Below, in pieces: positions 5,278 to 46,869 of a stretch of 64,000 nucleotides of DNA. The notes below the pieces were generated by a model that saw only the letters and a list, made by a program, of their open reading frames with translations, was not told the origin of the DNA and did no database searches. The DNA lies in NCBI GenBank assembly GCA_002633005.1, contig NMRA01000595.1:173367-237366 (forward strand), written 5' to 3'. Numbering within the stretch: position 1 is the first letter of the stretch; every line of letters starts with the position of its first letter. The stretch is from Phoronis australis (lineage: Eukaryota; Animalia; Phoronida). The position numbers were made by a program, and so were the translations under genes.

Positions 5278-5667
5278 TCAACAGGAAAATTTGCTATCAA
5301 TGGGCGAACAAAGGTTCAGCAGCTTACCGTTGCGTGGTCGACCATCAGGGAATATTTCATCACAAAGTGAGCGATCCTTAGTGCTCAACCAGTCATATAA
5401 AACTTCAATTCGCAGACCCTGTCCCCAAGTGAGTTTTTCGACAGCTCCCGAAGAAGAGGGACCTACGTTTGCACAAGAATGTGATGTAGAGTTGATGCGC
5501 GGAAAATATGACGTGTGAATAGCGACAAGTGCTGCCTTGTGGTCTTGAGAGCAAACAAACACCGGACTCCCAGACGAACCGTGACCAAATTCGGTGTTGA
5601 TATTATACACAACACGGCGAGGATCGGTCATTTGCGTTTTGCCAGGATAAGTTTTGAGGCTGGATAA
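5278..5667 (-). CDS. Last coding exon of the ankyrin-FAM111-like protease gene; catalytic Ser region
   Basis: Acceptor ttttcag, phase 0. Encodes LSSLKTYPGK...VVYNINTEFGHGSSGSPVFV...ALVAIHT...KFSC-stop. GSSGSPV is the trypsin-fold nucleophile motif and resembles FAM111A ITYDTEFFFGASGSPVF (recalled, not searched). Confidence 0.88.
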   Translation of the reverse strand, partial: LSSLKTYPGKTQMTDPRRVVYNINTEFGHGSSGSPVFVCSQDHKAALVAIHTSYFPRINSTSHSCANVGPSSSGAVEKLTWGQGLRIEVLYDWLSTKDRSLCDEIFPDGRPRNGKLLNLCSPIDSKFSC

Positions 5668-6363: not shown

Positions 6364-6680
6364 CGTGGCTCGTACTTCCTTCTGAGACACCACTTTCCGC
6401 TTGATTTCAGCCACTTTAAACTCACCCCCGGGATGACCTACAAGATGCACTGTCGTTTGGATATCACCGAGGGCGCAAAACCGTGTGATCCCGTCAGGCA
6501 GCTTCTGTCTTTTGGACGCCTTCGCAATACTTGTTTCATCCAATTCCAGAAGTGCCACATCGAGGACTTCGTCAAATAAAAGTACTTTGCAGAAAAGCTG
6601 GATCTGGAGACACTTGGCATTTGGATGGTCAAAGTAAAACGTAGCATTCAATTTCAGTATTTGTCCGCCAGGTTTTTCCG
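6364..6680 (-). CDS. Protease exon carrying the catalytic Asp
   Basis: Acceptor cttcag (phase 1), donor ACG|gtaagc (phase 0), frame-compatible with both neighbours. Encodes LNATFYFD...DEVLDVALLEL...VHLVGHPGGEFK, like FAM111 ELDYAVLKL and IIGHPYGEKK. Confidence 0.85.
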
Positions 6681-10800: not shown

Positions 10801-10983
10801 CAGCTACTTCTCCTTTAATGACGTGATAGTTGGTTAACAAATACTTGGGCTTTCCTTTTCCAACCAAGAAGCTAGACGCGGTCCAATTCCCGCACGAAAT
10901 GTTGACAACAGCCGCTGATGAATTGACCACTGATTCGTGAAACGCGATTGAAGTTTTTTTCTCATCAAGTTGTTGACCTTGAC
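10801..10983 (-). CDS. Protease exon carrying the catalytic His
   Basis: Encodes GQQLDEKKTSIAFHESVVNSSAAVVNISCGNWTASSFLVGKGKPKYLLTNYHVIKGEVA, with the LTNxHV motif. Donor G|gtaaac, phase 1. The acceptor ttgcaag is weaker, so the 5' edge is uncertain. Confidence 0.78.
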
Positions 10984-11999: not shown

Positions 12000-12168
12000 C
12001 AACTGGTCTCATGTTCCATTCGAGAACAGGGTCCTCATTTCTTAGTTCTCGTGACAATGTAACAGAAACTTTCATCAAGTCAGATCCTGGTGAGTGTACG
12101 CGTGCCGCTTTGTCCAAGATAGAGGCTACCTCCGCATCTACCTCTCGCTTTTCTTCTTCCCATTTGTT
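12000..12168 (-). CDS. Linker exon between ankyrin array and protease
   Basis: Acceptor attcag (phase 0), donor G|gtaata (phase 1). Encodes NKWEEEKREVDAEVASILDKAARVHSPGSDLMKVSVTLSRELRNEDPVLEWNMRPV and bridges the flanking exons in frame. Confidence 0.72.
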
Positions 12169-12385: not shown

Positions 12386-12469
12386 CTCAAGAACATTCTT
12401 AAGTTCTTTTTCACGAGCGTCATCCATGTTACACCCTTCCACAACAACGTCTATTGCTGTTCTGCCACG
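12386..12469 (-). CDS. Ankyrin C-cap exon
   Basis: 84 nt, phase 0-0, ttacag...gtacga. RGRTAIDVVVEGCNMDDAREKELKNVLE has a GRTAxD terminal-repeat signature. Confidence 0.78.
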
Positions 12470-12909: not shown

Positions 12910-13011
12910 CTTATCAATCGCTGACACCTGTGCTCCGTTGTTCAACAACAACTTCACCACATCGATGCGGCCATGCGCAGAGGCCACGTGCAGAGAGGTA
13001 GCGCCGCTTTT
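12910..13011 (-). CDS. Ankyrin repeat exon C (last full repeat)
   Basis: 102 nt, phase 0-0, ttcacag...gtaata. KSGATSLHVASAHGRIDVVKLLLNNGAQVSAIDK is close to ankyrin consensus. Confidence 0.9.
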
Positions 13012-17680: not shown

Positions 17681-18593
17681 TAATAGGATGGCCAAGATGC
17701 TTAACGATGAATAATCCTTTGTCATCTGCGTTGATTGTAGCTCAAAACGCGATGGTTATACGCTGCGTAGTTTGAAACCTCTTTTACCTTTACCCATGGT
17801 CATAGTGGTACATGTAGGAAGCGAGCGACACCGTGGTGAGCGCCCTGTATTCATGAAGAAGTCTAACGGGGAGGGGGTAAATTACATGTACATTGTAAAC
17901 TGTATGTCATCAGCGGAGGGGTGTTTAAGGTGGATATTGTGAAAGAGCGCTGCACTAAACTACCTCCATTACGATCTGCATTCTATGACACCAAAATGTC
18001 TACCAATGAAAAATGTCGGCAACAAGCAAGCAAGTAGGCATCCAGGACATGCTTTTTCGTAGATTTTTCGTGCATCTCTTTGGCCAAATAACACCTTTCA
18101 AAATATTTGCAAAAGACCGCCCGGTACACGAAATGTAGAAAAGGTACAAATTGATTTCTGCTATGAGGAATCATTTGTTACGCTGCTTAAAGATTGTATT
18201 TACAGTGTACATTGTTTTGAGTTAAACAGACTTTGCAATCTACTGCATTGCAGTTAGATTAAATTGAAATTATAACAAAAATGTGAGGGACAAAAATAGT
18301 CACTAAACATGTGTATAGACCACGTAACAGCACCACATTTTTATGGAAACTTTTCTTTCTAACATTTTATTAAATATCGCACCGTAAACCTTCGCGCACA
18401 TAGAAGCGATGAATAATGCACATCCCTGGTTCATATTCAAATCACTAAATGTATAACCATGACTCAAATTTCAGGAACATGTCTAATGGAGACGTTACAG
18501 CAAAACCCTAGTCTCCCACAAATTATAATACACGTTTCAGTACTTAGTGTATGCAGTAACTTTTGTGTTTTAATTCAAAAGTGGTTCGATTAT

Positions 18594-18689
18594 CTCATCA
18601 TCCTGCTTTGCTCCATTGTCCAACAATAACTCCACCATCTTGACGTCACCTCTTTCAATTGACAAGTGTAGAGGGGAATCAATGAGCCA
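18594..18689 (-). pseudogene. Ankyrin exon A1 with mutated donor, probably skipped
   Basis: WLIDSPLHLSIERGDVKMVELLLDNGAKQDDE. Acceptor intact, but the donor reads ATAATC where paralog A2 has GTAATC. Confidence 0.75.
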
Positions 18690-19599
18690 CTGTGAATTAA
18701 AATAGTACCTATGCTTACTGATCGGACATTGTACGTAAATTTACAACTGTTCCTATGCCAAGTGTATCAATACCCGTTTTATGATACAATGGGCTGAATT
18801 TCAACCAATATTCAACGTCTGCTTTGTAAACCTCACACAACATACATGACGCGTTAACAAATTGAAAAATAAGTGACGGTAAATATCACAAAGACAGCTG
18901 TTGACAGTAAATACAAACATCAATCTTTCGAAAATTCAATACATTATGTCTTCGTACTCAAGTCACTCCTGACCGACACATATAAAGGGCAGAGAGTCTT
19001 CAAAAAAACATTTTCGCCTTATTTTCACCGTCGACGGCATTTTTCCATTGTACAGCGTCTTTTTGGTGAAACATTCCATGACCGTACCTGTACATGTATC
19101 TAGAATATTCCACTGACATATCCTACGTCGTTGTGAGTATTTGCACCGCCGTGACAATTTATGCTTGCACTATACAGTGCAATAACTCTACTTGGTAAAA
19201 AACCGGTTATTAAGAAAACCCTCTATTAAAATTGTGCAATCTTTCTAAAAAACACTTCGCAACACAATTTCAGACATCATTTGAACTAAACACGTACTAT
19301 TCATTGATAAACCATCGTTTATGTAAAAAGAAACTCAAGTTCTCTCAATGATCGATGACACACATGTAGTATAGTTTGGCTTAAATAATGTATGACTTAG
19401 CATTGTTCGGTAGAATCAAAACACTGAATTCCCCACGCGAATAGTGTTCGTCGTCAGTCAAATTTTTGACATTATCATCCAATAGGTGTAAAGCCTTACT
19501 CAATAAGCATAATTATTATAAAAATTCACGGGACGGTGCAAATATTTTTGTTTGGCAAACATTTCGAAAATGATATTGCAGATCGATCTTCTTTATTAC

Positions 19600-19701
19600 C
19601 TTATTAGGGTCTGCTCCTTGCTCTAACAGCAGCTGCACCATTTTGAGGTTGCCGATAGACACTGCATACTCCAGTACGCTGGTTTCTAACAGCCGAGTAA
19701 C
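19600..19701 (-). CDS. Ankyrin cassette exon B1
   Basis: 102 nt, phase 0-0, ttcag/gtaata. VTRLLETSVLEYAVSIGNLKMVQLLLEQGADPNK. Confidence 0.85.
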
Positions 19702-21227
19702 CTGAAGAATCAATAACAAAACACAACTACAAAAGTTTAAGGACATGCAATGCAAATATACCAGCGTAGTAAAAAGGTAATGAAAAAGTACAAAGGAAAT
19801 TTATTTATAATTCAATCGCAACGTTTTACATCAACAAACAATTATTGCAGTTTAACATGCAAATAAACTCGAAATGCACAACTTGCAGGCCTAAATGAAC
19901 TGGAAATCCTTACCCTGCCTACATTTGTCTTGAAAGAGATGAACAGGGAAAAAACAAAAGCATCAAAAGCGTTGGCTTTCTGCTGTACCGGCGTGCTTTG
20001 CACTCCTGAATAACACACACCTTTTTGTTTGATTGCATTGTGTGCATACTCAGTTGCTAGGTTACCATCACGTCCACAGGTTTGTTTAGTGCCTTTTTTC
20101 ATCCACCAGTCCTTATATGGCGATTGATACAGATAATTTTGTTTTACATGGATTCTGACAGTGTTGTAATTAATGAAAGCGATGAGCGACAGACGACGTT
20201 TGCGGAAACAGACACGTAAGGTATTTTGATCTATAGTTTTTAATCATCATAGTACTCAAAAAGTGCCCATCTATCATATGGTGACAAAACGCCCCAGTGG
20301 CAACAATCGAAGGTAGACATAACATACTGAACTACGCGTTTGTCCGCTGAAATACGCGCAAAACTATTACAAGCAAGCAGCCGCTTACACAACGGAGGTG
20401 GGGTGGCCCGGGACCACGGCCCAGGGCATCCATATTAGGAAGTATCCAATCGATAAATAAGCTTTTGTAAATTGTGATTCATTTTTAGTTAACGTGAATA
20501 AAGTTTCTTTTTTATGTTTCATTTTTTGCTGGTGTTAGTACTTAAGGGTTCATGCATTTGAGTAGAGAAGGCCGCCCAATAAAAAATCGCCCTGGGCATC
20601 ACCAAACCTCTGCACGCTATTGCTAGGATCAACTCTCAAACGTTGCCGTTGGCATCCACTAATTGGTTGAGGAAGTGGATGAGGTCTTCGTAGTTTGACG
20701 TAAACTCTTCAGCAATAACGGATTAAATATTACATCTTCTATTTCGTGTTGTAAAGACCCGTTTGTATTTTGGGCGGCGCAGCATAGGAGACTGGGAGGG
20801 GAGGGGACGGCGCCAGAGCCAACACTTTTTCAGTGCTGCACCACCCATGGTATATGGGGGTTATAGCCTAACACTTCTTTCAAAGCTGCGCCGCCCATGT
20901 TGTATCAAGAATATTCGACTGACAACTCGCGTACTTCCTTGTGACAATTTGGGCATGCACTATACATGTATATTACAATAACTCTATTTGGTCCAAATCG
21001 GTTGTTAAGAAAACCACTGTTTTTAATCACTTTTCCAAAGTGCAACCCTTCTAAAAAGCCCTTCGCAACACAAATTTAGACATCATAAACTTGGCGAGAC
21101 ATTACGAAATCTATACTACCTTTTTGAAATCCTTAAAAAGTCAAGTAAACACCAAGGCTTCTATACTGCAGCCAACTTAAAAATGACAAAAACAGTGGCA
21201 GCGTACACAACACCTGATGTACCGGCA

Positions 21228-21281
21228 GTCGACGTTGCCATACGAGGTTAGATGCAGATACATGTAGGTCGAGCCCAACAT
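21228..21281 (-). pseudogene. Truncated ankyrin exon relic D (copies at 24838-24891, 28323-28376, 31808-31861)
   Basis: Acceptor context aattcacag is shared with exons A and C. Reads MLGST[YM]YLHLTSYGNVD, then breaks into unrelated sequence. Contains TACATGTA. Confidence 0.6.
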
Positions 21282-22204
21282 CTGTGAATTAATAGGATGG
21301 CCAAGATGCTTAACGTTGAATAATCCCGTGTCATCTGCGTTGATTGTAGCTCAAAATGCTATGGTTATACGCTGCGTAGTTTGAAACCTCTTTTACCTTT
21401 ACCCATGGTCAAAGTGGTACATGTAGGAAGCGAGCGACACCGTGGTGAGCGCACTGTATTCATGAAGAAGTCTAACGGGGAGGGGGTAAATTACATGTAC
21501 ATTGTACACTGTATGTCATCTGCGGAGGGGTGTTTAAGGTGGATATTGTGAAAGATCGCTGCACTAAACTACCTCCATTACGATATGCATTCTATGACAC
21601 CAAAATGTCTATCAATGAAAAATGTCGGCAATAAGCAAACAAGTAGGCATCCAGGACATGCTTTTTCGTAGATTTTTCGAATCAACGTCCAAACGTGCAT
21701 CTCTTTGGCCAAATAACACCTTTCAAAACATTTGCAAAAGACCGGCCGGTACACGAAATGTAGAAAAGGTACAAATTGATTTCTGCTATGAGGAATCATT
21801 TGTTACACTGCTTAAAGATTGTATTTACAGTGTACATTGTTTTGAGTTAAACAGACTTTGCAATCTACTGCATAGCAGTTAGATTAAATTGAAATTATAA
21901 CAAAAATGTGAGGGACAAAAATAGTCACTAAACATGTGTATAGACCACGTAACAGCACCACATTTTTATGGAAATTTTTCTTTCTAACATTTTATTAAAT
22001 ATCGCACTGTAAACCTTCGCGCACATAGAAGCGATGAATAATACACATCCCTGTTTTATATTCGAATCACTAAATGTATAACCACGAATTTCAGGAACAT
22101 ATCTAATGGAGACGTGACAGCAAAACCCTAGTCTCCCACAAATTATACTACATGTTTCAGTACTTTGTGTATGTTGTGTTTTAATTCAAAAGTGGTTCGA
22201 TTAC

Positions 22205-22300
22205 CTTATCATCCACCTTTGCTCCATTGTCCAACAATAACTCCACCATCTTGACGTCATCTCTTCGAATTGACCAGTGTAGAGGGGAATTATTGAGCCA
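22205..22300 (-). CDS. Ankyrin cassette exon A2
   Basis: 96 nt, phase 0-0, ttcacag/gtaatc. WLNNSPLHWSIRRDDVKMVELLLDNGAKVDDK. Confidence 0.85.
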
Positions 22301-23203
22301 CTGTGAATTAAAATAGTACCTATGCTTACTGATCGGCCATTGTACGTAAATTTACAACTGTTCCTATGCCAAGTGTATCAATACCCGTTTTAAGATACAA
22401 GGGCTGAATTTCAACCAATTTTCAACGTCTGCTTTGTAAACCTCACACAACATACATGACGCGTTAACAAATTGACAAATACGTGATGGTAAATATCACG
22501 AAGACAGCTGTTGACAGTAAATACAAACATCAATCTTTCGAAAATTCAATATATTACGTCTTCGTACTCAAGTCACTCTTGACTGACACATATAAAGGGC
22601 AGAGAGTCTTCAGAAAAACACTTTCGTCTTATTTTCACTTTCGACGGTATTTTTCCATTGTACAGCGTCTTTTTGGTGAAACATTTCATGACCGTACATG
22701 TATCTAGAATATTCCCCTGACATATCTTACGTCGTTGTGAATATTTGCCCCGCGGTGACAATTTAGGCCTGCACTATACAGTGCAATAACTCTATTTGGT
22801 CCAAAAACGGTTATTAAGAAAACCCTCTATTAAAAATGTGCAATCTTTCTAAAAAACACTTCGCAACACAATTTCAGACATCATTTGAACTAAACACGTA
22901 CTATTCATTGATAAACCATCGTTTATGTAAAAAGAAACTCAAGTTGTCTCAATGATAAATGACACACATGTAGTATAGTTTGGCTTAATTAATGAATGAC
23001 TTAGCATTGTTCGGTAGAATCAAAACACTTAATACCCCACACGGATAGTGTTCGTCGCCAGTCAAATTTTTGACATTATCATCCAATAGGTGTAAAGCCT
23101 TACTCAATAAGCATAATTATTATAAAAATTCACGGGACGGCGCAAATATTTTTGTTTGGCAAACATTTCGAAAATGATATTGCCGATCGATCTTCCTTAT
23201 TAC

Positions 23204-23305
23204 CTTATTAGGGTCTGCTCCATGCTCTATCAGCAGCTGCACCATTTCGCGGTTGCCTGTTACCACTGTATACTCCAGTGCGCGGAGTCCTAACCGTCGA
23301 ATAAC
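23204..23305 (-). CDS. Ankyrin cassette exon B2
   Basis: 102 nt, phase 0-0. VIRRLGLRALEYTVVTGNREMVQLLIEHGADPNK. Confidence 0.85.
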
Positions 23306-26300
23306 CTGAAGAATCAATAACAAAACACAACTACAAAGTGTAAGGACATGCAATGCAAATAAACCAGCGTAGTGAAAAGGTAATAAAAAATACAAAGGAA
23401 ATTTATTGATAATTCAATTGCAACGTTTTACAACAACAAACAATTGCAGCTTAAAATGCAAATAAACTCGAAATGCACAACTTGCAGGCCTAAATGAACT
23501 GGAAATCCTTACCCTGCCTACATTTGTCTTGAAAGAGATGAACAGGGAAAAAACAAAAGCATCAAAAGCGTTGGCTTTCTGCTGTACCGGCGTGCTTTGC
23601 ACTCCTAAATAACACACACCTTTCTGTTTGATTGCATTGTGTGTATACTCAGTTGCTAGGTTACCATCACGTCCACAGGTTTGTTTAGTGCCTTTTTTCA
23701 TCCACCAGTCCTTATATGGCGATTGATACAGATAATTTTGTTTTATATGGATTCTGAAAGTGTTGTTATAAATGAAAGCGATGTGCGACAGACGACGTTT
23801 GCGTAAACAAACACGTAATGTACTATTTTGATCTATAGTTTTTAATCATCATAGTACTCAAAAAGTGCCCATCTATCATATGATGACAAAACGCCCCAGT
23901 GGCAACAATCGAAGGTAGACATAACGTACTGAACTACGCGTTTGTCCGCTGAAATACGCGCAAAACTATTACAAGCAAGCAGCCGCTTATAGAACGGAGG
24001 TGGGGTGGCACAGGACCACGGCCCAGGGCATCCATATTAGGAAGTATCCAATCGATAAATAAGCTTTTGTAAGTTGTGATTCATTTTTAGTTAACGTGTA
24101 TAAAGTTTCTTTTTTATGTTTCATTTTTTGCTTGTGTTAGTACTTATGGGTGCATGCATTTGAGTAGAGAAGGCCGCCCAATAAAAAATCGGCCTGGGCA
24201 TCACCAAACCTCTGCACGCTATTGCTAGGATCAACTCTCAAACGTTGCCGTTGGCATCCACTAATTGTTTGAGGAAGTGGATGAGGTCTTCGTAGTTTGA
24301 CGTAAACTCTTCAACAATAACGGATTAAATATTACATCTTCTATTTCGTGTTGTAAAGACCCGTTTGTATTTTGGGCGGCGCGTCATCGGAGACTGGGAG
24401 GGGAGGAGACGGCGCCAGAGCCAACACTTTTTCAGTGCTGCACCACCCATGGTATATGGGGGGCTGGGAGTTATAGCCCAACTCTTTTTTCAAAGCGGCG
24501 CGTCTCAAGTTGTATCAAGAATATTCGACTGACAACTCACTCGAGACCTTGTGGCAATTTGGGCATGCACTTGTATACTGTATTACAATAATTCTATTTG
24601 GTCGAAATCGGTTGTTAAGAAAACCACTGTTTTTAATCACTTTTCAAAAGTGCAACCCTTCTAAAAAGCCCTTCGCAACACAAATTTAGACATCATAAAC
24701 TTGGCGAGACATTACGAAATCTATACTACTTTTTTGAAATCCTTAAAAAGTCAAGCAAACACCAAGGCTTCTATACTGCAGCCAACTTATAAATGATAAA
24801 AACAGTGGCAGCGTACACAACACCTGATGTACCGGCAGTCGACGTTGCCATCCGAGGTTAGATGCAGATACATGTAGGTCGAGCCCAACATCTGTGAGTT
24901 AATAAGATGGCCAAGATGCTTAACGATGAATAATCCTTTGTCATCTGCGTTGATTGTAGCTCAAAACGCGATGACAAAAACTATTTGATATTCATTAAAT
25001 AAAACAACAAACCAGATTTTCTTTAAGAATGACGATGTTCTTAGCAACATCCTAACTGAATATTGGAGGACATTGCTAAGGATTTGAATGAGTGACAAGC
25101 TAAAGCTTTGCTAGCGCAAAATTTTTCTTTTTGGAACGTGTCCTTAATTATTTCGGCAATTCATGCATCAGTGAAAGGTTCAACCTTTTACGTCAACTTT
25201 TGATCTAAACGAAATAGAAAAACGACTAATCCGAAAGGGAGAGGCGAAATTAATAAAGATTCATTACGATCCAAACTGGTATTGTGCTGCTGCGGGAAAG
25301 AATTGGTATCAAACAGGAAAATGGGAACACGCAAACTGGGCTGAGTTTCGTAGATGCAAGAATCTCTCGAAGGAAACGAGTGTCATCACATGCTTCAAGT
25401 GTAAAACGTAGCGATATTTTGCGAAGTCTTCCATGATCTTCAAAATGCTATTTCTCTAAGTTCACGCTTCTACGGACCGCAAAACACACGTGATACAACT
25501 GGCTTAGACAGGAGTGTTCAACAGCGGGACTACTTATAAATAATATTAGGAAACAATTTCGATAAAACGGCATTGTTTTAAAGAGTAATAAATAATGGAC
25601 AGGATTTCTAAATAACGCTACACAGCTGATAGGGAATAATGAGAGAAGCAATCAACAAAGCTCTTACTAGTCAATAAGACTCCTTCAAAAATCACGTGAT
25701 TGCTGCAACTCTAGATATGTAGTGTGAATAAGAAGCTGTGGCCGAACAAACTTTTGTCGTGACCTGTGTCACGTGAATCTAACTATTTAAAAATGATCTG
25801 ATTATAAGAGAAAAAATTCGTATGTGGTTATAGGTCACCGACTTTGGAACTGCATGTGATATCGGATTTCATATTATCATCCATTGGCCCGTTCAATTGT
25901 TTGCAAAGTTGAAATTCACTTCTCCAAATGTTTAGGTAGCTTTTGAACTCTGCTAGTTAAAATAAACAGCTGCTGATTGGCTAGAGGGTCCCAAGTGATT
26001 CAAAGGTGATGCACGTGAAGTTAATCGCTACACTTACTTTTGCCATGAATATAATAAAAGATTCGGCTTGTTGTCTTACATTCTTGTGTCTGATTGCGTG
26101 AATCAGTTCTAATTCAGATCCATTCAATCTTTCTTTGTTCAGTGTTGTCGCAGTTTCGCAATAAGGGCCAATTCGCTAATCAGTTTACAGGCCTGCTCTG
26201 TTTAAGTGAATAATTTATGCTAAATTATTGCCGACGCCATCTGCTAAGCCCAATATATTTAAAATAATAAAAATCCATTCATTGAAGAATTAAAGAATTT

Positions 26301-26687
26301 TGATGAAAGACAACAATTCCTTTCTTTATGAGTACTGCTGTTTTAATAATACATCATTTGAACTAAACAAATATTTATTGATAAATCTTCATTTATGTTT
26401 AAAGAAACCCAAGTATGATGACTGAAGTTGTCTCAAAGACAAATGACACACATGTAGTATAATTTGGCTTAAATAATGAATGACTTAGCATTGTTCGTTA
26501 GAATCAAAACACTTAATACCCCACACGAATAGTGCTCGTCGTCAGTCAAATTTTTGACATTATCATCCAAAATGTGTAAAGCCTAACTGAATAAGTATAA
26601 TTAAAATAAAAATTCACGGGACGGCGCAAAAATTTTTGTTTAGCAAACATTTCGAAAATGAAATTGCAAATCGATCTTCTTTATTAC

Positions 26688-26789
26688 CTGATTAGGGTCT
26701 GCTCCACGCTCTAACAGCACCTGCACCGTTTCGAGTTTGCCTCTGGATATTGCAAACTCCAGTACATTTTGCCCAAACAGCCGAGAAAC
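26688..26789 (-). CDS. Ankyrin cassette exon B3 (not in the ORF track)
   Basis: 102 nt, phase 0-0, tttag/gtaata. VSRLFGQNVLEFAISRGKLETVQVLLERGADPNQ. Confidence 0.85.
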
Positions 26790-29700
26790 CTAAAGAATCA
26801 AAAACAAAACACATTTTTAAAAGTGTAAGGACATGCAATGCAAATAAACCAGCGTATTAAAAAGGTAATAAAAAGTACAAAGCAAATTTATCTATAATTC
26901 AATTGCAACGTTTTACATCAACAAACAATTGCAGCTTAAAATGCAAATAAACACGAAATGCACAACTTTCAGGCCTAAATGAACTGGAAAACCTTACCCT
27001 GCCTACATTTGTCTTGAAAGAGATGAACAGGGAAAAAACAAAAGCATCAAAAGCGTTGGCTTTCTGCTGGACCGGCGTGCTTTGCTCTCCTAAATAACAC
27101 AAACCTTTCTGTTTGATTGCATTGTGTGTATACTCAGTTGCTAGGTTACCATCACGTCCACAGGTTTGTATAGTACCTTTTTTCATCCACCAGTCCTTAT
27201 ATGGCGATTAATACAGATAATTTTGTTTTACATGGATTCTGACAGTGTTGTAATAAATGAAAGCGATGTGCGACAGACGACGTTTGCGGAAACAGACACG
27301 TAATGTACTATTTTGATCTATAGTTTTTAATCATCATAGTACTCAAAAAGTGCCCATCTATCATATGATGACAAAACGGCCCAGTGACAACAATCGAAGG
27401 TAGACATAACGTACTGAACTACGCGTTTGTCCGCTGAAATACGCGCAAAACTATTACAAGCAAGCAGCAGCTTACAGAACGGAGGTGGGGTGGCACAGGA
27501 CCACGGCCCAGGGCATCCATATTAGGAAGTATCCAATCGATAAATAAGCTTTTGTAAGTTGTGATTCATTTTTAGTTATCGTGTATAAAGTTTCTTTTTT
27601 ATGTTTCATTTTTTGCTTGTGTTAGTACTTAAGGGTGCATGCATTTGAGTAGAGAAGGCCGCCTAATAAAAAATCGGCCTGGGCATCACCAAACCTCTGC
27701 ACGTTATTGCTAGGATAAACTCTCAAACGTTGGCGTTGGCATCCACTAATTGTTTGAGGAAGTGGATGAGGTCTTCGTAGTTTGACGTAAACTCTTCAGC
27801 AATAACGGATTAAATATTACATCTTCTATTTCGTGTTGTAAAGACCCGTTTGTATTTTGGGCGGCACAGCATAGGAGACTGGGAGGGGAGGGGACGGCGC
27901 CAGAGCCAACACTTTTTCAGTGCTGCACCACCCATGGTATGTGGGGGGCTGTGGGTTATAGCCTAACTCTTTTTTCAAAGCTGCGCCGCCCATGTTGTAT
28001 CAAGAATATTCTACTGACAACTCACTCGAGACCTTGTGGCAATTTGGGCATGCACTATACATGTATATTATAATAACTCTATTTGGTCCAAATCGGTGAT
28101 TAAGAAGACCACTGTTTTTAATCACTTTTCAAAAGTGCAACCCTTCTAAAAAGCCCTTCGCAACACAAATTTAGACATCATAAACTTGGCGAGACATTAC
28201 GAAATCTATACTACTTTTTTGAAATCCTTAAAAAGTCAAGCAAACACCAAGACTTCTATACTGCAGCCAACTTAAAAGTGATAAAAACAGTGGCAGCGTA
28301 CACAACACCTGATGTACCGGCAGTCGACGTTGCCATACGAGGTTAGATGCAGATACATGTAGGTCGAGCCCAACATCTGTGAGTTAATAAGATGGCCAAG
28401 ATGCTTAACGATGAATAATCCTTTGCCATCTGCGTTGATTGTAGCTCAAAACGCGATGACAAAAACTTTTTGATATTCATTAAATAAAACAACAAACCAG
28501 ATTTTCTTTAAGAATGACGATGTTCTTAGTAACATCCTAACTGATTATTGGAGGACATTATTGAAGATTTGAATGAGTGACTAACTAAAGCTTCACTAGG
28601 GCTAAGTTATCTTTTTGGAACGTGTCCTTAATTATTTCGGCAATTGATGCATCAGTGAAAGGTTCAACATTTTAGGTCAACTTTTGACCTAAACAAAATA
28701 AAAAAAACGACTAATCCGAAAGGGAGAGGCGAAATTAATAAAGATTCATTAAGATCGAAACTGGTATTGTGCTGCTGCGGGACTGAATTTGTATCAAACA
28801 GGAAAATGGGAACACACAAAACTGAGCTGAGTTTCCTAGATGCAAGAATCTCTCGAAGGAAACGCGTGTCATCACATGCTTCAAGTGTAAAACGTAGCGA
28901 TATTTTGCGAAGTCTTCCATAATCTTCAGTTGCTATTTCTCGAAGTTCTCGCTTCTACGGAACGCACAACACACGAGATACAACTGGCTTAGCCAGGAGT
29001 GTTCAACAGCGGGACTACTTATAAATAATATTAGGAAACAATTTCGATAAAACGGCTTTGTTTTAAAGAGTAATAAAAAGTGGACAGGATTTCTAAATAT
29101 CGCTACACCGCTGATAGGGTATAATGAGAGAAGCAATCAACAAAGCTCTTACTAGTCAATAAGGCTCCTTCAAAAATCACGTGACTGCTGCAACTCTAGA
29201 TATGTAGTGTGAGTAAGAAGCTGCAGCCGAACAAACTTTTGTCGAGACCTGTGTCACGTGAATCTAACTATTCAAAAATGATCTGATTATAAGAGAACAA
29301 AAATTCGTATATGGTTATAGGTCACCGACTTTGGAACTGCATGTGATATCGGATTTCATATTATCATCCATTGGCCCGTTCAATTGTTTGCAAAGTTGAA
29401 ATTCACTTCTCCAAATGTTTAAGTAGCTTTTGAACTCTGCTAGTTAAAATAAACAGCTGCTGATTGGCTAGAGGGTCCCAAGTGATTCAAAGGTGATGCA
29501 CGTGAAGTTAATCGCTACACTAACCATTGCCATGAATATAATAAAAGATTCGGCTTGTTGTCTTACATTCTTGTGTCTGATTGCGTGAATCAGTTCTAAT
29601 TCAGATCCATTCAATCTTTCTTTGTTCAGTGTTGTCGCAGTTTCGCAATAAGGGCCAATTCACTAATCAGTTTACAGGCCTGCTCTGTTTAAGTGAATAA

Positions 29701-30174
29701 TTTATGCTAAATTATTGCCGACGCCATCTGCTAAGCCCAATATATTTAAAATAATAAAAATCCATTCATTGAAGAATTAAAGAATTTTGATGAAAGACAA
29801 CAATTCCTTTCTTTATGAGTACTGCTGTTTTAATAATACATCATTTGAACTAAACAAATATTTATTGATAAATCTTCATTTATGTTTAAAGAAACCCAAG
29901 TATGATGACTGAAGTTGTCTCAAAGACAAATGACACACATGTAGTATAATTTGGCTTAAATAATGAATGACTTAGCATTGTTCGTTAGAATCAAAACACT
30001 TAATACCCCACACGAATAGTGCTCGTCGTCAGTCAAATTTTTGACATTATCATCCAAAATGTGTAAAGCCTAACTGAATAAGTATAATTAAAATAAAAAT
30101 TCACGGGACGGCGCAAAAATTTTTGTTTAGCAAACATTTCGAAAATGAAATTGCAAATCGATCTTCTTTATTAC

Positions 30175-30276
30175 CTGATTAGGGTCTGCTCCACGCTCTG
30201 ACAGCACCGGCACCGCTTCGAGTTTGCCTCTGGATATTCGATACTCCAGTACATCTTGCCCAAACAGCCGAGAAAT
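30175..30276 (-). CDS. Ankyrin cassette exon B4 (not in the ORF track)
   Basis: 102 nt, phase 0-0, splice sites intact. ISRLFGQDVLEYRISRGKLEAVPVLSERGADPNQ, with some fold-disrupting changes. Confidence 0.68.
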
Positions 30277-33200
30277 CTAAAGAATTAATAACAAAACACA
30301 ACTACAAAAGTTTAAGGACATGCAATTCAAATAAACCAGCGTCATAAAAGGTAATAAAAAGTACAAAGCAAATTTATTTATAATTCAATTGCAACGTTTT
30401 ACATCAACAAACAATTGCAGCTTAAAATGCAAATAAACTCGAAATGCACAACTTGCAGGCCTAAATGAACTGGAAAACCTTACCCTGCCTACATTTGTCT
30501 TGAAAGAGATGAACAGGGAAAAAACAAAAGCATCAAAAGCGTTGGCTTTCTGCTGGACCGGCGTGCTTTGCTCTCCTAAATAACACAAACCTTTCTGTTT
30601 GATTGCATGGTGTGTATACTCAGTTGCTAGGTTACCATCACGTCCACAGGTTTGTATAGTACCTTTTTTCATCCACCAGTCCTTATATGGCGATTAATAC
30701 AGATAATTTTGTTTTATATGGATTCTGAAAGTGTTGTATTAAATGAAAGCGATGTGCGACAGACGACGTTTGCGTAAACAAACACGTAATGTACTATTTT
30801 GATCTATAGTTTTTAATCATCATAGTACTCAAAAAGTGCTCATCTATCATATGATGACAAAACGCCCCAGTGGCAACAATCGAAGGTAGACATAACGTAC
30901 TGAACTACGCGTTTGTTCACTGAAATACGCGCAAAACTATTACAAGCAAGCAGCCGCTTACAGAACGGAGGTGGGGTGGCACAGGACCACGGCCCAGGGC
31001 ATCCATATTAGGAAGTATCCAATCGATAAATAAGCTTTTGTAAGTTGTGATTCATTTTTAGTTAACGTGTATAAAGTTTCTTTTTATGTTTCATTTTTTG
31101 CTGGTGTTAGTACTTAAGGGTGCATGCATTTGAGTAGAGAAGGCCGCCCAATAAAAAATCGCCCTGGGCATCACCAAACCTCTGCACGTTATTGCTAGGA
31201 TAAACTCTCAAACGTTGCCGTTGGCATCCACTAATTGTTTGATGAAGTGGATGAGGTCTTCGCAGTTTGACGTAAACTCTTCAGCAACAACGGATTAAAT
31301 ATTACATCTTCTATTTCGTGTTGTAAAGACCCGTTTGTATTTTGGGCGGCGCAGCATAGGAGACTGGGAGGGGAGGGGACGGCGCAAGATCCAACACTTT
31401 TTCAGTGCTGCACCACCCATGGTATATGGGGGGCTGGGGGTTATAGACTAACTCTTTTTTCAAAGCGGCGCGTCTCATGTTGTATCAAGAATATTCTACT
31501 GACAAGTCACGTGAGACCTTGTGACAATTTGGGCATGCACTATACATGTATATTATAATAACTCTATTTGGTCCAAATCGGTCATTAAGAAAACCACTGT
31601 TTTTAATCACTTTTCAAAAGTGCAACCCTTCTAAAAAGCCCTTTGCAACACAAATTTAGACATCAAAAACTTGGCGAGACATTACGAAATCTATACTACT
31701 TTTTTGAAATCCTTAAAAAGTCAAGCAAACGCGAAGACTTCTATACTGCAGCCAACTTAAAAGTGATAAAAACATTGGCAGCGTACACAACACCTAATGT
31801 ACCGGCAGTCGACGTTGCCATACGAGGTTAGATGCAGATACATGTAGGTCGAGCCCAACATCTGTGAGTTAATAAGATGGCCAAGATGCTTAACGATGAA
31901 TAATCCTTTGCCATCTGCGTTGATTGTAGCTCAAAACGCGATGACAAAAACTATTTGATATTCATTAAATAAAACAACAAACCAGATTTTCTTTAAGAAT
32001 GACGATGTTCTTAGTAACATACTAACTGATTATTGGAGGACATTATTGAAGATTTGAATGAGTGACTAACTAAAGCTTCACTAGGGCTAAGTTTTCTTTT
32101 TGGAACGTGACCTTAATTATTTCGGCAATTTATGCATCAGTGAAAGGTTCAACATTTTAGGTCAACTTTTGACCTAAACAAAATAAAAAAAACGACTAAT
32201 CCGAAAGGGAGTGGCGAAATTAATAAAGATTCATTAAGATAGAAACTGGTATTGTGCTGCTGCGGGACTGAATTTGTATCAAACAGGAAAATGGGAACAC
32301 ACAAAACTGAGCTGAGTTTCCTAGATGCAAGAATCTCTCGAAGGAAACGCGTGTCATCACATGCTTCAAGTATAAAACGTAGCGATATTTTGCGAAGTCT
32401 TCCATAATCTTCAGTTGCTATTTCTCTAAGTTCTCGCTTCTACGTGATACAACTGGCTTAGCCAGGAGTGTTCAACAGCGGGACTACTTATAAATAATAT
32501 TAGGAAACAATTTCGATAAAACGGCTTTGTTTTAAAGAGTAGTAAAAAGTGGACAGGATTTCTAAATAACGCTACCCCGCTGATAGGGTATAATGAGAGA
32601 AGCAATCAACAAAGCTCTTACTAGTCAATAAGGCTCCTTCAAAAATAACGTGACTGCTGCAACTCTAGATATGTAGTGTGAGTAAGAAGCTGCGGCCGAA
32701 CAAACTTTTGTCGAGACCTGTGTCACGTGAATCTAACTATCCAAAAATGATCTGACTATAGGAGAACAAAAATTCATATATGGTTATAGGTCACCGACTT
32801 TGGAACTGCATGTGATATCGGATTTCATATTATCATCCATTGGCCCGTTCAATTGTTTGCAAAGTTGAAATTCACTTCTCCAAATGTTTAGGTAGCTTTT
32901 GAACTCTGCTAGTTAAAATAAACAGCTGCTGATTGGCTAGAGGGTCCCAAGTGATTCAAATGTGATGCACGTGAAGTTAATCGCTACACTAACCATTGCC
33001 ATGAATATAATAAAAGATTCGGCTTGTTGTCTTACATTCTTGTATCTCATTGCGTGAATCAGTTCTAATTCAGATCCATTCAATCTTTCTTTGTTCAGTG
33101 TTGTTGCAGTTTCGCAATAAGGGCCAATTCACTAATCAGTTTACAGGCCTACTCCGTTTAAGTGAATAATTTATGCTAAATTATTGCCGGCGCCATCTGC

Positions 33201-33621
33201 GAAGCCCAATACATTTAAAATAATAAAAATCCATTCATTGCAGAATTATGAATTTTGATGAAAGACAACAATTCCTTTCTTTATGAGTACTGCTGTTTTA
33301 ATAATACATTATTTGAACTAAACAAATATTTATTTATAAATCGTCATTTATGTTTAAAGGCGAAGGCAACCTTTTTCCATGTCATTTTGAGCTAAAATAA
33401 GGTTGGTTGGTTATCCTAGACATATTTTCTACTTAATTACAGCTTTTCGTAATTTATTAATTACTCGTCCGCTACTCCGGAAGTGACGTTTTAGGAGGCA
33501 AGCATTTCGCGCCAATTTCTTTTCATATAGTCTGATTGTGAGAGCTGCCGAGTCAGTCATTGTTCTACCTCGCTTGTGTTAAGTTCCGTCGTCGTTTGCT
33601 TTCATTTACTAGTCAGACAAC

Positions 33622-34700
33622 ATGCCACACTGTTGCTACGTACCAGGATGTACTATTTATCGGCTCACGCGCGCTTTGGTAGTACCTTTCCATCGCTTTC
33701 CGATGGATGACACACTTCGCCGTACTTGGCTCGTTCGTGTGAAGAACGCAGCGTTACCCGTCCACGCAACGTACATGTACAAAGCAGTGGAGAATTCCGT
33801 GTGTGTGGCAAGCACTTTCTGCCGTCCGATTACGAAAGGGATCTGTACGCTGAACTGATGAAGGTCCCTGTGAAACAACTTCTGAAGAAAGATGCCATTC
33901 CGTCTGTGTTGATTCCCGGCAGTGCCCCGTCGCCACCCCCGAGAAGTGAGTTTTTGAAACGAGAAGCCTCGCGAGCTGTGGCCAGTACAGTGACTGGAGC
34001 CAGTGGAGGCACTTTATCTACTGTCACCCGTGCCTCCGAACGTACCCCAGAGCGTGCAATTCCTGGAACCAGTAGTGATTCGCACTGTGCTGTTTTCTCC
34101 AGCCCAGAGCCTCTAAGCAGCCCTGCAGCGATATCGAGTAGTGGGAGTGATTACAGGCCCAGTTCGACACCCAGTGAAGAGGACAGTTCGTCGTCCAGTG
34201 AACAGATCGGTGAGCCAAACTTTGATAAGTTTATTGTGGACTTGTCTAAAGTGTTGGAGCTATTTAGAAGGTGCCAGGTGTGTGGCGAGGGAGTCACACG
34301 ACACAATGTAAGCAGTTTGGGTGCTCAGGTCACCATCCAGTGGGAGTGTGTCACGGGACACTCTGGCAAGTGGGACAGTTGTTCCTCTGTCCGTGGTATG
34401 CCGGAGGTCCACTTAACCATGTCCAGTGGTGTGCTCTTCACTGGAAACACGTTTCAGTCGGTGAAGACAATGATGGACTTTGGAAAAGTCAAGTTTTTTT
34501 TCGAAAACAACATTCAACAACATTCAGAATTCCTATTTAATACCAGTTGTCAATGACGCATACATGTCACAACATCTCGAGTTGGTGGCGGAATTCATGG
34601 AGAAGGAGAACTTGTCTGACTCACCAGGGCGGTCCGCCAAGTATACCACATACACTCTAATGGAGGAAGAGACCAAAAAGATAATTGATGTGGAACTCGG
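33622..34700 (+). pseudogene. THAP-domain Kolobok transposase, frameshifted and truncated
   Basis: THAP C2CH (MPHCCYVPGC..FHRFP..RTW..RVCGKHF..DAIPSV), CxxC...C..GH..W, then DSPGRSAKYTTYTLME. Split over three frames and cut off at ~34700. Confidence 0.88.
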
Positions 34701-34701
34701 A

Positions 34702-34968
34702 ACAGCACAAGCATTCAATTGAGGTAGGCATAACAACGCACACAGTGCATTTGCACCAAGATGTGTCACCACGTCTGTCTTCAGTAGCCGCCTCGTTTCT
34801 CTCAACAGCTGCCTGTGCCTGTGTGTACTCTGCCTCGTTGTACTCGGGCTCAAACATGTACCCACCCACTGAATGTCCGTGAAAAAATTCCTCGTCACCA
34901 CTGCTGTGAACAAGGTCTCCGTCACTCACACTACTGTCACTGTGATACGGGTCACCGACTCCAGCCAT
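34702..34968 (-). pseudogene. KolX fragment (P2X7 C-terminal/Nanor-like zinc module)
   Basis: MAGVGD...GYMFEPEY...RRGDTSWCKCTVCVVMPTSIECLCC, convergent with the transposase as is typical of Kolobok. Confidence 0.8.
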
Positions 34969-35591
34969 TTTCAGCTTACAACACACTAAACAATCCCTAA
35001 ATCCAACGCAGTTGAGTTCTCTACTAACCTATCTTGCCGCAGAATACTCGCCGATGGAAAGTGGTGGCGACAATTGGTGAAAAATAGCACAAAACAAAAG
35101 TAGAATAGAACAGATTCGCACAGTAAGCTCAACGCAAAACCAAGTGGCGGGAAGCGCTTGCCTCCTAAAACGTCACTTCCGGAAAAGCGGACGAGTAATT
35201 AATAAAATTACGAAAAGCTGTAATTAAGTGAAAAATATGTCTAGGATAACCAACCAACCTTATTTTAGCTCAAAATGAAATGGAAAAAGGTTGCCTTCGC
35301 CTTTAAAGAAACTCAAGTATGATGACTTAAGTTATCTCAATGATGAATGACACACATATAGTATAATTTGGCTTAAATAATGAATGACTTAGCATTGTTT
35401 GGTAGAATCAAAACACTTAATACCCCACACGAATAGTGTTCGTCGTCAGTCAAATTTTTGACATTATCATCCAATAGGTGTAAAGCCTTACTCAATAAGC
35501 ATAATTATTATAAAAATTCACTGGCCGGCGCAAATATTTTTGTTTGGCAAACATTTCGAAAATGATATTGCAGATCGATCTTCTTTATTAC

Positions 35592-35693
35592 CTTATTAGG
35601 GTCTGCTCCTGGCTCAAACAGCAGCTTCAACAGTTCGCGTTCGCGGAAAGACCCTTCAATCACATGTGCGATGGTTTTTATCGGTCGATGAAC
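35592..35693 (-). CDS. Ankyrin cassette exon B5, highly diverged
   Basis: 102 nt, phase 0-0, splice sites intact, no stop. VHRPIKTIAHVIEGSFRERELLKLLFEPGADPNK. Confidence 0.62.
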
Positions 35694-36667
35694 CTGAAGA
35701 ATCAAGAACAAAACACAACTACAAAACTGTAAGGACATGCAATGCAAATAAACCAGCGTAGTAAAAAGGTAATGAAAAAGTACAAAGGAAATTTATTTAT
35801 AATTCAATTGCAACATTTTACATCAACAGACAATTGCAGCTTAACATGCAAATAAACTCGAAATGCACAACTTGCAGGCCTAAATGAACTGGAAATCCTT
35901 ACCCTGCCTACATTTGTCTTGAAATAGATGAACAGCTAAAAAACAAAAGCATCAAAAGCGTTGGCTTTCTACTGGACCGGCGTGCTTTGCACTCCTAAAT
36001 AGCACACACCTTTCTGTTTGATTGCATTGTGTGTATATTCAGTTGCTAGGTTACAATCACGTCCACAGTTTTGTTTAGTGGTTGTTTTATCCACCAGTCC
36101 TTATATGGCGATTGATACAGATAATTTTGTTTTACATGGATTCTGACAGTGTTGTAATAAATGAAAGCGATGTGCGACTGACGACGTTTGCGGAAACAGA
36201 CACGTAAGGTACTATTTTGATCTATAGTTTTTAATCATCATAGTAATACCCAAAATGTGCTCATCTATCATATGACAAAACGTCCCAGTGGCAACAATCC
36301 AAGAGCCACATAATGTATTCAACGGAATGTTTGCCACTGTTTTGCGCGCAAAACAATTACTAGCAAGCAGTAGCTTAGAGAATGGGGGCACGGAACCACG
36401 GCTCCGGGCATCCCTATTAGAGAACATCCACTCGATAAATAAACTTTTTGAAAATGCGATTCGGCGCCAGAGCAGACATTTATTCAGTTCTGCACCGCCC
36501 AAGGTATATGGGGGCTGGGTGAGGGGAAAGTCAGGCTATAGCACAACACTTTTGCAGTTGTACGCCGCCCATGTTGTAAGACTTGTTTACCAAAGATCAC
36601 GAAATTTCGTTTTGATTTTATGCAAAAGTATACATGGCGTTAATTCTCGGATGCTGTAAACATTCCA

Positions 36668-37811: not shown

Positions 37812-40620
37812 GGCAGCAACTATCCAACAATTCTGCTATGACTGTACCTCTCTCCTAATGGAATATGATGTTAAGCGTCAGAAAACGATTCCGAACTTGG
37901 GCATAATAGAATGAGTACAACAACTGGGTGAGTTAAATTGCGCAGACAACAACAAGGAATGACTTCCCAGACTCTCAAAAATCAACTGAATACATGGGTT
38001 TGCGAAACTTGGCACATCTAGATCCCAAATTTAAATTTTGGCAATGAACCATTGACTGGGTGGTGGGCATTTGAAATGACCAAAATAGCTACATTTTCAG
38101 ATCTGTAAAATCGGCCCAATCAAACTTTAAACTGCACTAATATTTGAAAAGGAGATATTATAATGTTAACTTTTCACATTTTAGACTTTAAACCAGTAAA
38201 CTGAAGTCATCTAAAAGTGGGAAATTCTATGAACTTTCATGTTCACACGACCATTCGACCTGTTCAATGATACTTAAATAAAATTAAAATCAGTAATTCA
38301 CGACCCTGGTTTATAACTTAGTCCATGAATTTACGGCCACATCTAAGTTTCACTAATAGGTATGCGTGTAAAAGGTATGGAAACAACGAAATAGTTCTTC
38401 ATATTATCATTCCCACATGAATAATTAGCACTGTGCTTAAACTGAATAATGATGCCGATTAAAACATCATCTTGATTTACTCCATAGTCGAACAAATGCT
38501 TCACCACATCGACGTGGCCATTCATTAAAGTCCTTCTCTCAAACTGTCCATGTGGTTCCAGTATCCGAAAATACTTACTACATAAATTCTTATTTTCGAC
38601 ACCCTTTCTTTATATTCTTTTCGCCTTTCTTGCCAAAAGCGATTTTTTAACAGTATTTGACCCTTCTCTATGAGCATATGATTACCGGTTGTCATCGGTT
38701 ATTTCCGTACCCACATTTCCGGCTCATCAGTTCAGGAACTTGTCCTGAACGCCGCCATTTTTTCCTTGTAACTGAATGTGCTATGGCTTGCTCGAAAAGT
38801 CTTTATTATTTCGTTTTATTAGTAATATATCGTGATTCGTTTGCATATGTAGTGTATTTATAGTTTGTAGTTAGTGGTCGTTGAATTTTTGGAATGTTAC
38901 GCGTACTTAGTATGTTAAAATAGCATTGGTGTTTAGTTCCTTACGTAGGCCGGTCGAACCTAGGAACCAATATGGGTCGAACCAATTTTTTTCGGTTTTA
39001 TTTTTTCCTCGTTTTGAAAAAGTACTTTGCTATCATCGGAAAGGTAGTACATTGTACTCAGTAAAAATCGAAAAAGTATCAAAATCGGGGAAAGCACTGT
39101 AAAGTTATTGCAAGTTTTGTGGCGAAATTTGGGTCACTTTGTTGGATCGCGTCGGCCATATTGGAGGACAGCGGGATAAGTTACGAGTTTAAAACTTTGT
39201 GTAAATTGTTTTCGCCAACAAATTACGGTGAAATTTAGTTAGACATATCTTTACTTACTATTCTGCACGATTTAACAGTGTTCACCAAATTTCAGCCTCG
39301 CAGTTGTTACTCATTAAGTGATATGTGCTCAAAATTCCCGTTGGACAACATGGCGACTTTTGCTGAACTGAAAGGTATGTTCAATCGGCTACTTTGTAAT
39401 TTGTGAAGATTTAACGTTGATACATTTTGACAAACGTTGCTACAAAAAAGAAACTTTGTTCAATTTTCGTGTTTTTTGTGCAAAAATATAAGATATATTC
39501 GAATTATTTCAGGTTATCAAGTCAACAATTTGAACAATCTTAATTTGAGAAATAAGCTATGTTGGATTGTGAGGCTTCAAGCCTCTAATTCTTGTTCCTT
39601 GCAACTTCATATTTTTTTAAGCGATGCTTGTCAAATTCTGGTGAAAGGAAACACTATTCCGTCACCATGGTAATAGTTACATGTATGTCCACTTTCATAT
39701 CATGGAAACTGTTGCTGTTGTGTTGGACTTGTCATACTTAAAGATAGTAAAAGATGGACATTCTCAAAAATTCCAGCCCCCCATTCTTTTAGGCTTGGTG
39801 CGCAAATACAAAGTCTGGGAAAATCTCTATTGAAAGCCAACAACTTTGCACAGTTCGTACCCAAGTTCTAAATAAACCTCGTTTGAGCGAGCGCTGTGGC
39901 CAGGGACCAGTTAGCAGCAACTATCCAACAATTCTGCTATGACTGTACCTCTCTCCTAATGGAATTTGAAGGGAAACTTTAATGAGAGTGAGAAAATGAT
40001 GTCAGAATTTGCGCATGTTAGACTGATTACAACAACAGGGTGAGTCTCATTGTGTAGGAAATAATTCTCAGACTCTTAAATATGAACTGAATACAAGGGT
40101 GTGACAAACTTGGCACATCTAGATCCCAAATTAGTTTAAATTTCGTCAATGAACCATGGTCTGGTTGGAAGGCATTGGAAATAACCAAATAGCTACATTT
40201 TCAGATCTGTAAAATTGGCCCAATCAAATTTTTAGTATTAGAAAAAGAGACATCTCAATGTCAATTTTATATTTTTTAGAGTTTCAACCAGTAAACTGAA
40301 GTCATTTAAATGTGGGGGAATTCTATGAACTTTCGAGTTCACGCGACCATTTGACCTGTTCAATGATACTAAAATAAAAGGGAGATGAATAATTTACGTC
40401 CCTGGTTTATAAACTTGGCCATGAATTTACGACCACAGCTAATTTTAACTCACAGTTATGCATGCAAAAGGTATATATTACAACGAAATTGTTCTAAATA
40501 TAATTCCCACATGAGTAATTAGCACTGTGCTTAATTTGAACAATGATGCCGATTAAAACATCATTCACATTTAGTCCATAGTCCAATAATAGGTTCACCA
40601 CATCGATGTGATCATTCGTT
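37812..40620. repeat. Older diverged direct duplication (~37812-38525 vs ~39913-40620)
   Basis: Both copies begin gcagcaactatccaacaattctgctatgactgtacctctctcctaatggaat, stay colinear for ~700 bp and end in an ankyrin relic. Confidence 0.85.
38462..38525 (-). pseudogene. 5'-truncated ankyrin exon relic
   Basis: MNGHVDVVKHLFDYGVNQDDV. The first half of the repeat and the acceptor are missing, and the donor-equivalent position reads TTAATC. Confidence 0.65.
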
Positions 40621-40646
40621 GAGGTGTAGAGAGGTGGTGCTCTTTT
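40557..40646 (-). pseudogene. Decayed ankyrin exon related to exon C
   Basis: KRAPPLYTSTNDHIDVVNLLLDYGLNVNDV. The acceptor-equivalent cacag reads cactg and the donor-equivalent gtaatc reads ttaatc. Confidence 0.65.
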
Positions 40647-40722
40647 CAGTGACTGGGATTTGTTGTCTTCGTAGACAAATGCTAACGCATCATGGCAAAC
40701 TTCACGTGACAATCAACGAATA

Positions 40723-46791: not shown

Positions 46792-46869
46792 ATGGTAATT
46801 GACATGCACACCTTGCCTCAGCAACCATCGAACTTCATCAACTTCACCTCCTCCTACAGCCCTGAACAA
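46792..46869 (-). CDS. Ankyrin N-cap exon (not in the ORF track)
   Basis: 78 nt, phase 0-0, acceptor tgttacag, perfect donor GTAAGT. LFRAVGGGEVDEVRWLLRQGVHVNYH resembles the N-cap pattern [24 protein letters not shown]. Confidence 0.82.

Follow-up and report, generated by a model that had tools for sequence, protein, structure and literature searches.

A positively selected array of single-repeat ankyrin exons in Phoronis australis, in a gene with a predicted trypsin-like protease and a truncating splice-donor loss

We investigated a stretch of 64,000 nucleotides (nt) of Phoronis australis DNA (assembly GCA_002633005.1, contig NMRA01000595.1, positions 173,367 to 237,366), hereafter the window, in whose own positions all coordinates are given. 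It is eukaryotic DNA rich in introns, in which units of about 3.5 kb are repeated in tandem between 17.7 and 36.5 kb. Inside these units lie seven single-repeat ankyrin-type exons, on the minus strand and in phase 0. They form a real, expressed and positively selected array, in a gene that also has a predicted protease and a splice loss that truncates its transcript. A previous sequence-only reading of the window had taken the exons for a diversifying receptor array resembling designed ankyrin repeat proteins (DARPins), and had overlooked both the downstream protease exons and the loss of the donor of the last array exon, A1. We give about an even chance to the fuller interpretation, in which one minus-strand gene joins the positively selected array in frame to a predicted trypsin-like protease and its product is likely an intracellular sensor-protease engaged in a host-pathogen arms race.

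In the RNA, codon and Pfam tests the exons are named in transcript order, B5, B4, B3, B2, A2, B1 and A1 (Table 1). When a further exon, C, is counted in, eight symmetric phase-0 repeat exons of 96 or 102 nt are present, and no repeat exon was found on the opposite strand of the locus. The tandem units duplicate one or two repeats per event.

The exons have diverged from each other in an unusual manner, and our recount agrees with the figures first reported. A1 and A2 differ at 9 of 96 nt and B3 and B4 at 8 of 102 nt, with no synonymous codon in either pair, and the pairs B1/B2 (18/102) and B1/B5 (26/102) have one purely synonymous codon each. On the donor side, the introns differ at 12 of 250 positions for B1/B2 and at 0 of 250 for B3/B4. 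GADPN is invariant, a stop or indel occurs in no exon, and codons 29-33 are unchanged. The word intact does not fit A1, whose splice donor has changed from GT to AT. Divergence of the exon exceeded that of the flanking introns in all ten B pairs (Fisher p from 0.009 to 6e-21); the exons differ by 8-44% and the introns by 2.5-6.8%, the weakest pair being B3/B4 (p = 0.009). In the B alignment, 50 of the 102 exon columns are variable, 41 of them within the first 66 nt, and the flanking introns vary at 63 of 584 and 28 of 245 columns.

The introns of the units stay 93-97% alike, with conversion-like patches, and when whole units are compared, the introns have local patches with as many as 13 differences per 100 nt, so that the sister pairs, taken by themselves, are evidence of modest weight. 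Gene conversion probably contributes, as the sequence-only reading had cautioned: mosaic or conflicting informative sites were found together with an almost identical tract of about 600 nt beside B3/B4, and the 110 nt on the acceptor side of this pair differ at 9 of 108 positions, as in the divergence of about 10% given before. Because of these signs of conversion the introns are no clean clock; the test within the exons is independent of them.

Under the codon model M0, the ratio of amino-acid-changing (dN) to synonymous (dS) substitution, omega, was 3.7 over the five B exons (p = 0.0008 against omega = 1) and ranged from 3.5 to 4.1 across three tree shapes (all p <= 0.0013 against the same value). 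The model M2a was better than M1a (p <= 0.0002), with 65-81% of the B codons in the class of omega > 1. When B5 was left out, omega was 2.6 (p = 0.03). The lengths of the B exon tree were 1.0 for dN and 0.27 for dS, and the intron tree measured 0.125; silent sites thus evolve at about the intron rate, perhaps twice as fast, and amino-acid sites eight times faster. In a tree-free simulation of three independent pairs, which are those of the sequence-only reading, one purely synonymous codon was observed against 7.5-8.2 expected (P = 0.001-0.002), none of the pairs being significant singly. A1/A2 and B3/B4 have zero third-position differences, with about 3 expected in each. The diversifying selection and tandem exon duplication that had been proposed are therefore borne out by an omega above 1, a synonymous deficit and duplicated units, and the data support the conclusion that the protein sequence of the repeat exons changes at a rate above that of neutral drift.

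An overlapping or antisense frame under purifying selection was rejected as the source of this pattern, since codon positions 1 and 2 vary at 20 of 34 and 18 of 34 sites; the antisense frame was also rejected by the lack of antisense reads over the exons. Local hypermutation is unlikely, as third positions are spared and the ratio of transitions to transversions in the exons (33:50) is close to that in the introns (90:102).

Three stranded RNA runs bearing the same species label, from three samples of one study (X6, X7 and X8, about one fifth of each run being used), were mapped on 4500-21250 and 17930-19900. Joints from B to A exons were covered by 57, 41 and 63 reads in X6, X7 and X8 (two copies pooled), and joints from A to B exons by 20, 19 and 29 reads. 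Loose ends beside a B end matched the start of B4 in 37, 14 and 42 reads and that of B3 in 25, 17 and 34 reads, these counts being upper bounds because both groups are mixed (agreement 0.72-0.92). Internal letters of B5 were found exactly in 32, 12 and 30 reads. The similar read numbers at B-B, B-A and A-B joins indicate serial inclusion and not either/or splicing, which contradicts the earlier picture of exchangeable cassettes. The exact B3, B4 and B5 letters, together with the serial joints, confirm that the copies are real and expressed, and exclude an assembly artefact. Additionally, in X8 only, one joint (10 reads) and one loose end (19 reads) came from B-like repeats without a match in the window; in the exon frame they read FEQAVRFS and ALEQAVTCS, and apparently begin at codon 9, with the hairpin absent. 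They may be alleles of the array or belong to a paralogue. On 18594-19701, two X8 reads carry an A exon with other first four codons, too few to trust.

The distribution of the changes over the repeat was scored by ankyrin consensus position and not by a structural model; position 14, the remaining hairpin positions and a core set were scored as well. Positions 2, 3, 5, 10, 13 and 33 are randomised in ankyrin libraries, according to an excerpt of PMC4308713. The changes had been said to fall mostly in the hairpin and first helix. This stands for A1/A2, in which 5 of 7 changes lie on the binding face (p = 0.005), and does not for B1/B2 (6 of 13, p = 0.10); likewise, enrichment of the face is not significant for B3/B4 (2 of 7) or B1/B5 (6 of 21, with 6.2 expected). 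Pooling B1-B3, variability is higher on the face than elsewhere (p = 0.03), and the pool of B1-B5 gives no significant excess (p = 0.08). Core positions account for 3 of the 7 changes in B3/B4 and 8 of the 21 in B1/B5. The curated cut-off of Pfam Ank PF00023, 21.1 bits, is reached by A1 (24.5), A2 (28.8), C (31.2), B1 (26.7), B2 (21.9) and B3 (23.4 bits), A2 being without the conserved Gly. It is not reached by B4 (best match Ank_5, 14.2 bits), and the Pfam scan gave no family for B5, both exons being homologous to B1-B3 by DNA. Judged from their residues, the two most N-terminal repeats, B5 and B4, appear to have been pushed off the ankyrin fold, almost wholly by amino-acid changes. A DARPin-like variation confined to the binding face is not what is found, given that about 80% of the B codons fall in the class of omega > 1 and that B4 and B5 have core changes and fail Pfam Ank. 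As the B faces are not enriched either, the description as a natural DARPin is overstated.

At the 3' end of the array, sense-strand RNA continues beyond the end of A1 at a depth of 13, 31 and 23 in X6, X7 and X8; the B1-A1 intron has a depth of 0. Some of the read-through reads differ from the A1 flank at one site only and are therefore of A1 type. Since the A1 donor is lost and the reads run to a stop, the more frequent transcript would code for nothing but repeats; the main transcript likely ends ahead of the protease, with about 267 residues counted from the cap exon. A candidate start codon for this putative cap exon is an in-frame ATG at 46887. The exon would be spliced to B5; by itself it gave no Pfam match, and it was part of the seed of our home-made hidden Markov model. 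A large repetitive stretch with an assembly gap (17043-17223) occupies 13000-17900, in the A1-C intron. Its RNA depth of up to 380x is mostly on the opposite strand and likely comes from copies elsewhere, its two open reading frames (ORFs) gave no Pfam match, and it may bear on A1 becoming terminal.

Downstream of the array, exons C to I exhibit canonical splice sites and matching phases. When joined by script from the cap exon, the exon chain minus A1 gives 642 codons with no internal stop, and the full-length repeat-plus-protease form would arise in this way from a rarer transcript that skips A1. Exons F, H and I encode a predicted trypsin-like serine protease (clan PA, S1) with an intact His-Asp-Ser triad. 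The three motifs occur in order at 172, 220 and 317 of the exon C-I model, spaced by 48 and 97 residues; FAM111A has spacings of 54 and 102 residues (excerpt of PMC9798293). Each of the three exons gives weak, independent trypsin-like matches: exons F and I, searched singly, score 12.9 and 13.2 bits with Pfam Trypsin_2 (cut-off 27.6 bits), and other matches were to DegP, plasmid peptidases and the ESM Atlas. In the search of solved structures FAM111A was the top of 13 matches of exon I, around the Ser motif, with a non-significant E of 0.24, and FAM111 was absent from the matches of exons H and F, of which onconase and armadillo were treated as chance. A home-made protease profile scored 25.7 bits against 11.8 for the best of 2000 shuffles, its seed having been chosen by likeness to exon I. 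A single-sequence AlphaFold model of exon I (predicted local distance difference test score 31.7) was uninformative. No relative came out of a metagenome scan or of word-indexed searches among proteins queried with exon I and exon H (longer proteins only), and the 4 matches of a HMMER scan of 1.84 billion representatives, all repetitive proteins, were dismissed. The predicted protease is not established as a member of FAM111. Sense RNA at 5618-6176 is 1.2-1.8x on average, above what 50 exonic bases explain; H and I may have an additional exon between them, or the intron separating them may be retained.

The interpretation as a sensor-protease would work as follows. The solenoid has grown by duplication of single-repeat phase-0 exons, the introns being homogenised. 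The repeats could bind or bait a foreign protein, upon which the protease would be released or aimed, and the ankyrin-only form may act as a decoy or damper. That the degenerate B5 and B4 serve as a loosely folded bait end is a guess. The protein is likely cytosolic, considering that no transmembrane stretch was seen by eye in the model, which starts at the putative cap exon. A host-pathogen arms race is what we infer as the driver. Further-reaching, and tentative at best, is the proposal of a class of cytosolic immune receptor in animals that would be new to description, in which a FAM111-like protease would be combined with ankyrin exons gained, lost and reshuffled between individuals, as a natural DARPin library at the level of the population, and checked by an ankyrin-only decoy that arose from the splice-donor loss.

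Several points weigh against the sensor-protease. The sample for selection is five B and two A short sequences, and conversion can bias site models. With the Pfam-positive B1-B3 only, omega is 1.9 (p = 0.17), so that much of the signal comes from B4 and B5, which look unfolded, and no B pair tested is enriched on the binding face. Among the joints listed for X6-X8, no read joins an array repeat exon to exon C, and the protease-side exons have sense reads at about 0-6x vs 12-63 reads per repeat junction or exon start. In each of the three RNA runs the stretches of B3, B4 and B5 agree with the assembly, and this counts against extreme allelic variation of those exons. The searches for relatives gave no relative, ligand or immune expression.

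It is rather unlikely that selection now acts on a protein of ankyrin repeats only, a separate binder or decoy, with exons C-I being transcribed apart, from an internal start, or forming a fading remnant. The read-through past A1 next to a silent B1-A1 intron argues for it, as do the low depth on the protease side and the missing exon C junction among the listed joints; however, exons C and D, a repeat and a cap, would need upstream repeats to fold, the phases all fit the skipping of A1, and the triad and frame are intact. Unlikely, too, is a real selection exerted by a partner other than a pathogen, such as a fast-changing host protein, an allorecognition factor, a gamete protein or a transposon product, with the repeats acting as substrate adaptor of the protease. 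In its favour, fungal NLRs with homogenised, variable repeats govern allorecognition, as an excerpt of PMC13449251 states. The evidence on the other side is circumstantial: the consulted portion of PMC3341825 proposes an immune receptor role for designs that combine a repeat sensor with an effector and show exon turnover, that of PMC9798293 describes the weakly matching FAM111 proteases as antiviral, and an NB-ARC-like gene lies next door. Distinctly improbable is that the locus is decaying, the protease link being broken and the repeats drifting while conversion keeps the introns alike and the exons merely look fast, which would suit the lost A1 donor, the inserted elements, the loss of the conserved Gly in A2, the changed core residues of B4 and B5, two decayed exons upstream, the mosaic sites and tract beside B3/B4 and a dS about twice the intron value, but drift predicts an omega near 1, which is rejected, and A1/A2 and B3/B4 lack the expected third-position differences, codons 29-33 are invariant and every exon is open and spliced.

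Among known systems, the brown algal ROCO-LRR and NB-ARC-TPR genes share with this array one repeat per exon, tandem exon turnover and diversifying selection (excerpts of PMC3341825 and PMC11378527). The same part of PMC3341825 describes inactivated exons within introns, to be compared with the two decayed exons and one lost donor found here, and arrays of repeats linked to a domain with enzymatic or signalling function. The repeats are LRR or TPR there and ankyrin here, and the joined domain is ROC-COR or NB-ARC there and a predicted protease here; moreover, no repeat exon lies here on the opposite strand, the exons here are included serially rather than by demonstrated alternative splicing, and the gene is likely an animal one (PMC3341825, in part). 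Without their repeats and NTPase, the ankyrin gene is not a member of this receptor group: the exon model contains no ROC-COR or NB-ARC, the NB-ARC-like ORF lying on the other strand and at least 10 kb off. As for the Ectocarpus-type trait of repeat content differing among individuals or paralogues, the observation at hand is the X8 repeats without a match in the window, which may be alleles or come from a paralogue. The fungal NLRs whose WD40, ANK or TPR repeats are highly conserved internally share concerted repeats homogenised by unequal crossing-over or conversion, with variable specificity positions and a repeat number that may differ between individuals; in contrast, the ankyrin gene has no NACHT or NB-ARC, and homogenisation here affects the introns, the exons diverging widely, core included (PMC13449251, as excerpted).

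FAM111A and FAM111B share the C-terminal trypsin-like domain and a similar His-Asp-Ser spacing, whereas an ankyrin array stands here where vertebrate FAM111 has UBL domains and a PIP box, features likewise missing from the FAM111-like proteins of coral and lancelet (available text of PMC9798293). DARPins share the order of cap, stack of internal repeats and cap, and the A1/A2 changes fall mainly at library-randomised hairpin and helix-1 sites, but the B repeats vary over codons 1-28, buried sites included, and two no longer match the family (PMC4308713, in part). Dscam arrays likewise use tandem duplicated exons for variable binding modules, although Dscam exons are mutually exclusive and the ankyrin exons here are joined serially (B-B, B-A, A-B). 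In the portion of PMC8195603 consulted, ankyrins and trypsin-like peptidases are named separately among immune-type systems, with no fusion of both. In brown algae, LRR and TPR genes are described as candidate immune receptors that diversify with one repeat per exon (excerpt of PMC3341825); our searches of the open-access literature, outside which most subscription papers lie, gave no animal ankyrin case of this and no fusion of ankyrin repeats with a trypsin-like protease. If the sensor-protease interpretation is true, invertebrate immunity gains a further receptor design, and antiviral proteases of the FAM111 type may have started as effectors on exchangeable sensors. The locus is also compact, and conversion, selection and splice-site loss can be followed in it repeat by repeat.

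Table 1 Features of the ankyrin locus, in transcript order, with the duplication units and the inserted transposon (window positions)
Feature	Position	Strand	Remarks
Putative N-terminal capping ankyrin repeat exon	46792..46869	-	78 nt, AG..GT, donor phase 0
Decayed ankyrin exon	40560..40652	-	A/C-like, degraded donor, Pfam Ank E 0.02
Second decayed ankyrin exon	38466..38558	-	E 0.2, within the 37813-38526 / 39914-40620 duplication
B5 repeat exon	35592..35693	-	expressed, ankyrin consensus gone
B4 repeat exon	30175..30276	-	expressed; against B3: A13R, Q23P, L26S
B3 repeat exon	26688..26789	-	
B2 repeat exon	23204..23305	-	
A2 repeat exon	22205..22300	-	GT donor normal
B1 repeat exon	19600..19701	-	
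A1 repeat exon	18594..18689	-	donor lost (AT)
A1 read-through	17930..18593	-	7 further codons, stop 18570-18572, then sense RNA as would-be 3' untranslated region
Exon C	12910..13011	-	canonical ankyrin repeat
Exon D	12386..12469	-	putative C-terminal capping repeat, judged by eye, no Pfam match
Exon E	12000..12168	-	linker
Exon F	10801..10983	-	protease start, His motif
Exon H	6364..6680	-	protease middle, Asp motif; RNA-type contig spans it
Exon I	5278..5667	-	protease end, G-x-S-G-S-P Ser motif, stop
Tandem duplication units	17681..36519	.	about 3.5-3.6 kb, 92-95% identical, bearing repeat exons
Kolobok (Kol0-type) DNA transposon	33357..35303	.	B5-B4 intron (B5 donor side); TTAA duplication, AG..CT ends

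The Kolobok element has inverted repeats of about 170 nt, with a THAP ORF and a P2RX7_C/KolX ORF on opposite strands. A TTAA duplication, RR..YY ends and a transposase ORF plus KolX define Kol0 in the accessible part of PMC9587614, and all are found in 33357-35303; the element is apparently spliced over. On the plus strand, head to head with the ankyrin gene, 57218-61118 holds an NB-ARC/STAND-like gene with a P-loop exon at 57.2-57.5 kb and an ORF of 454 residues at 59754-61118. This ORF matched Pfam AAA_16 (E 0.003) and NB-ARC (E 0.002), both under the cut-off, and the word-indexed protein search gave no relative; it is conceivable that the two genes form a sensor/helper pair. A multi-copy element at 8970-10700, in the F-H intron, shows an RNA depth of 130-390x on both strands. 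A stretch at 45507-45851 matches intron pieces of the duplication units at 72-86% with no repeat exon adjoining; it may be what remains of an older unit, or a small mobile element. Palindromes 94-258 nt in length, resembling miniature inverted-repeat transposable elements, lie at 40726-40890, 55130-55223 and 57655-57902.

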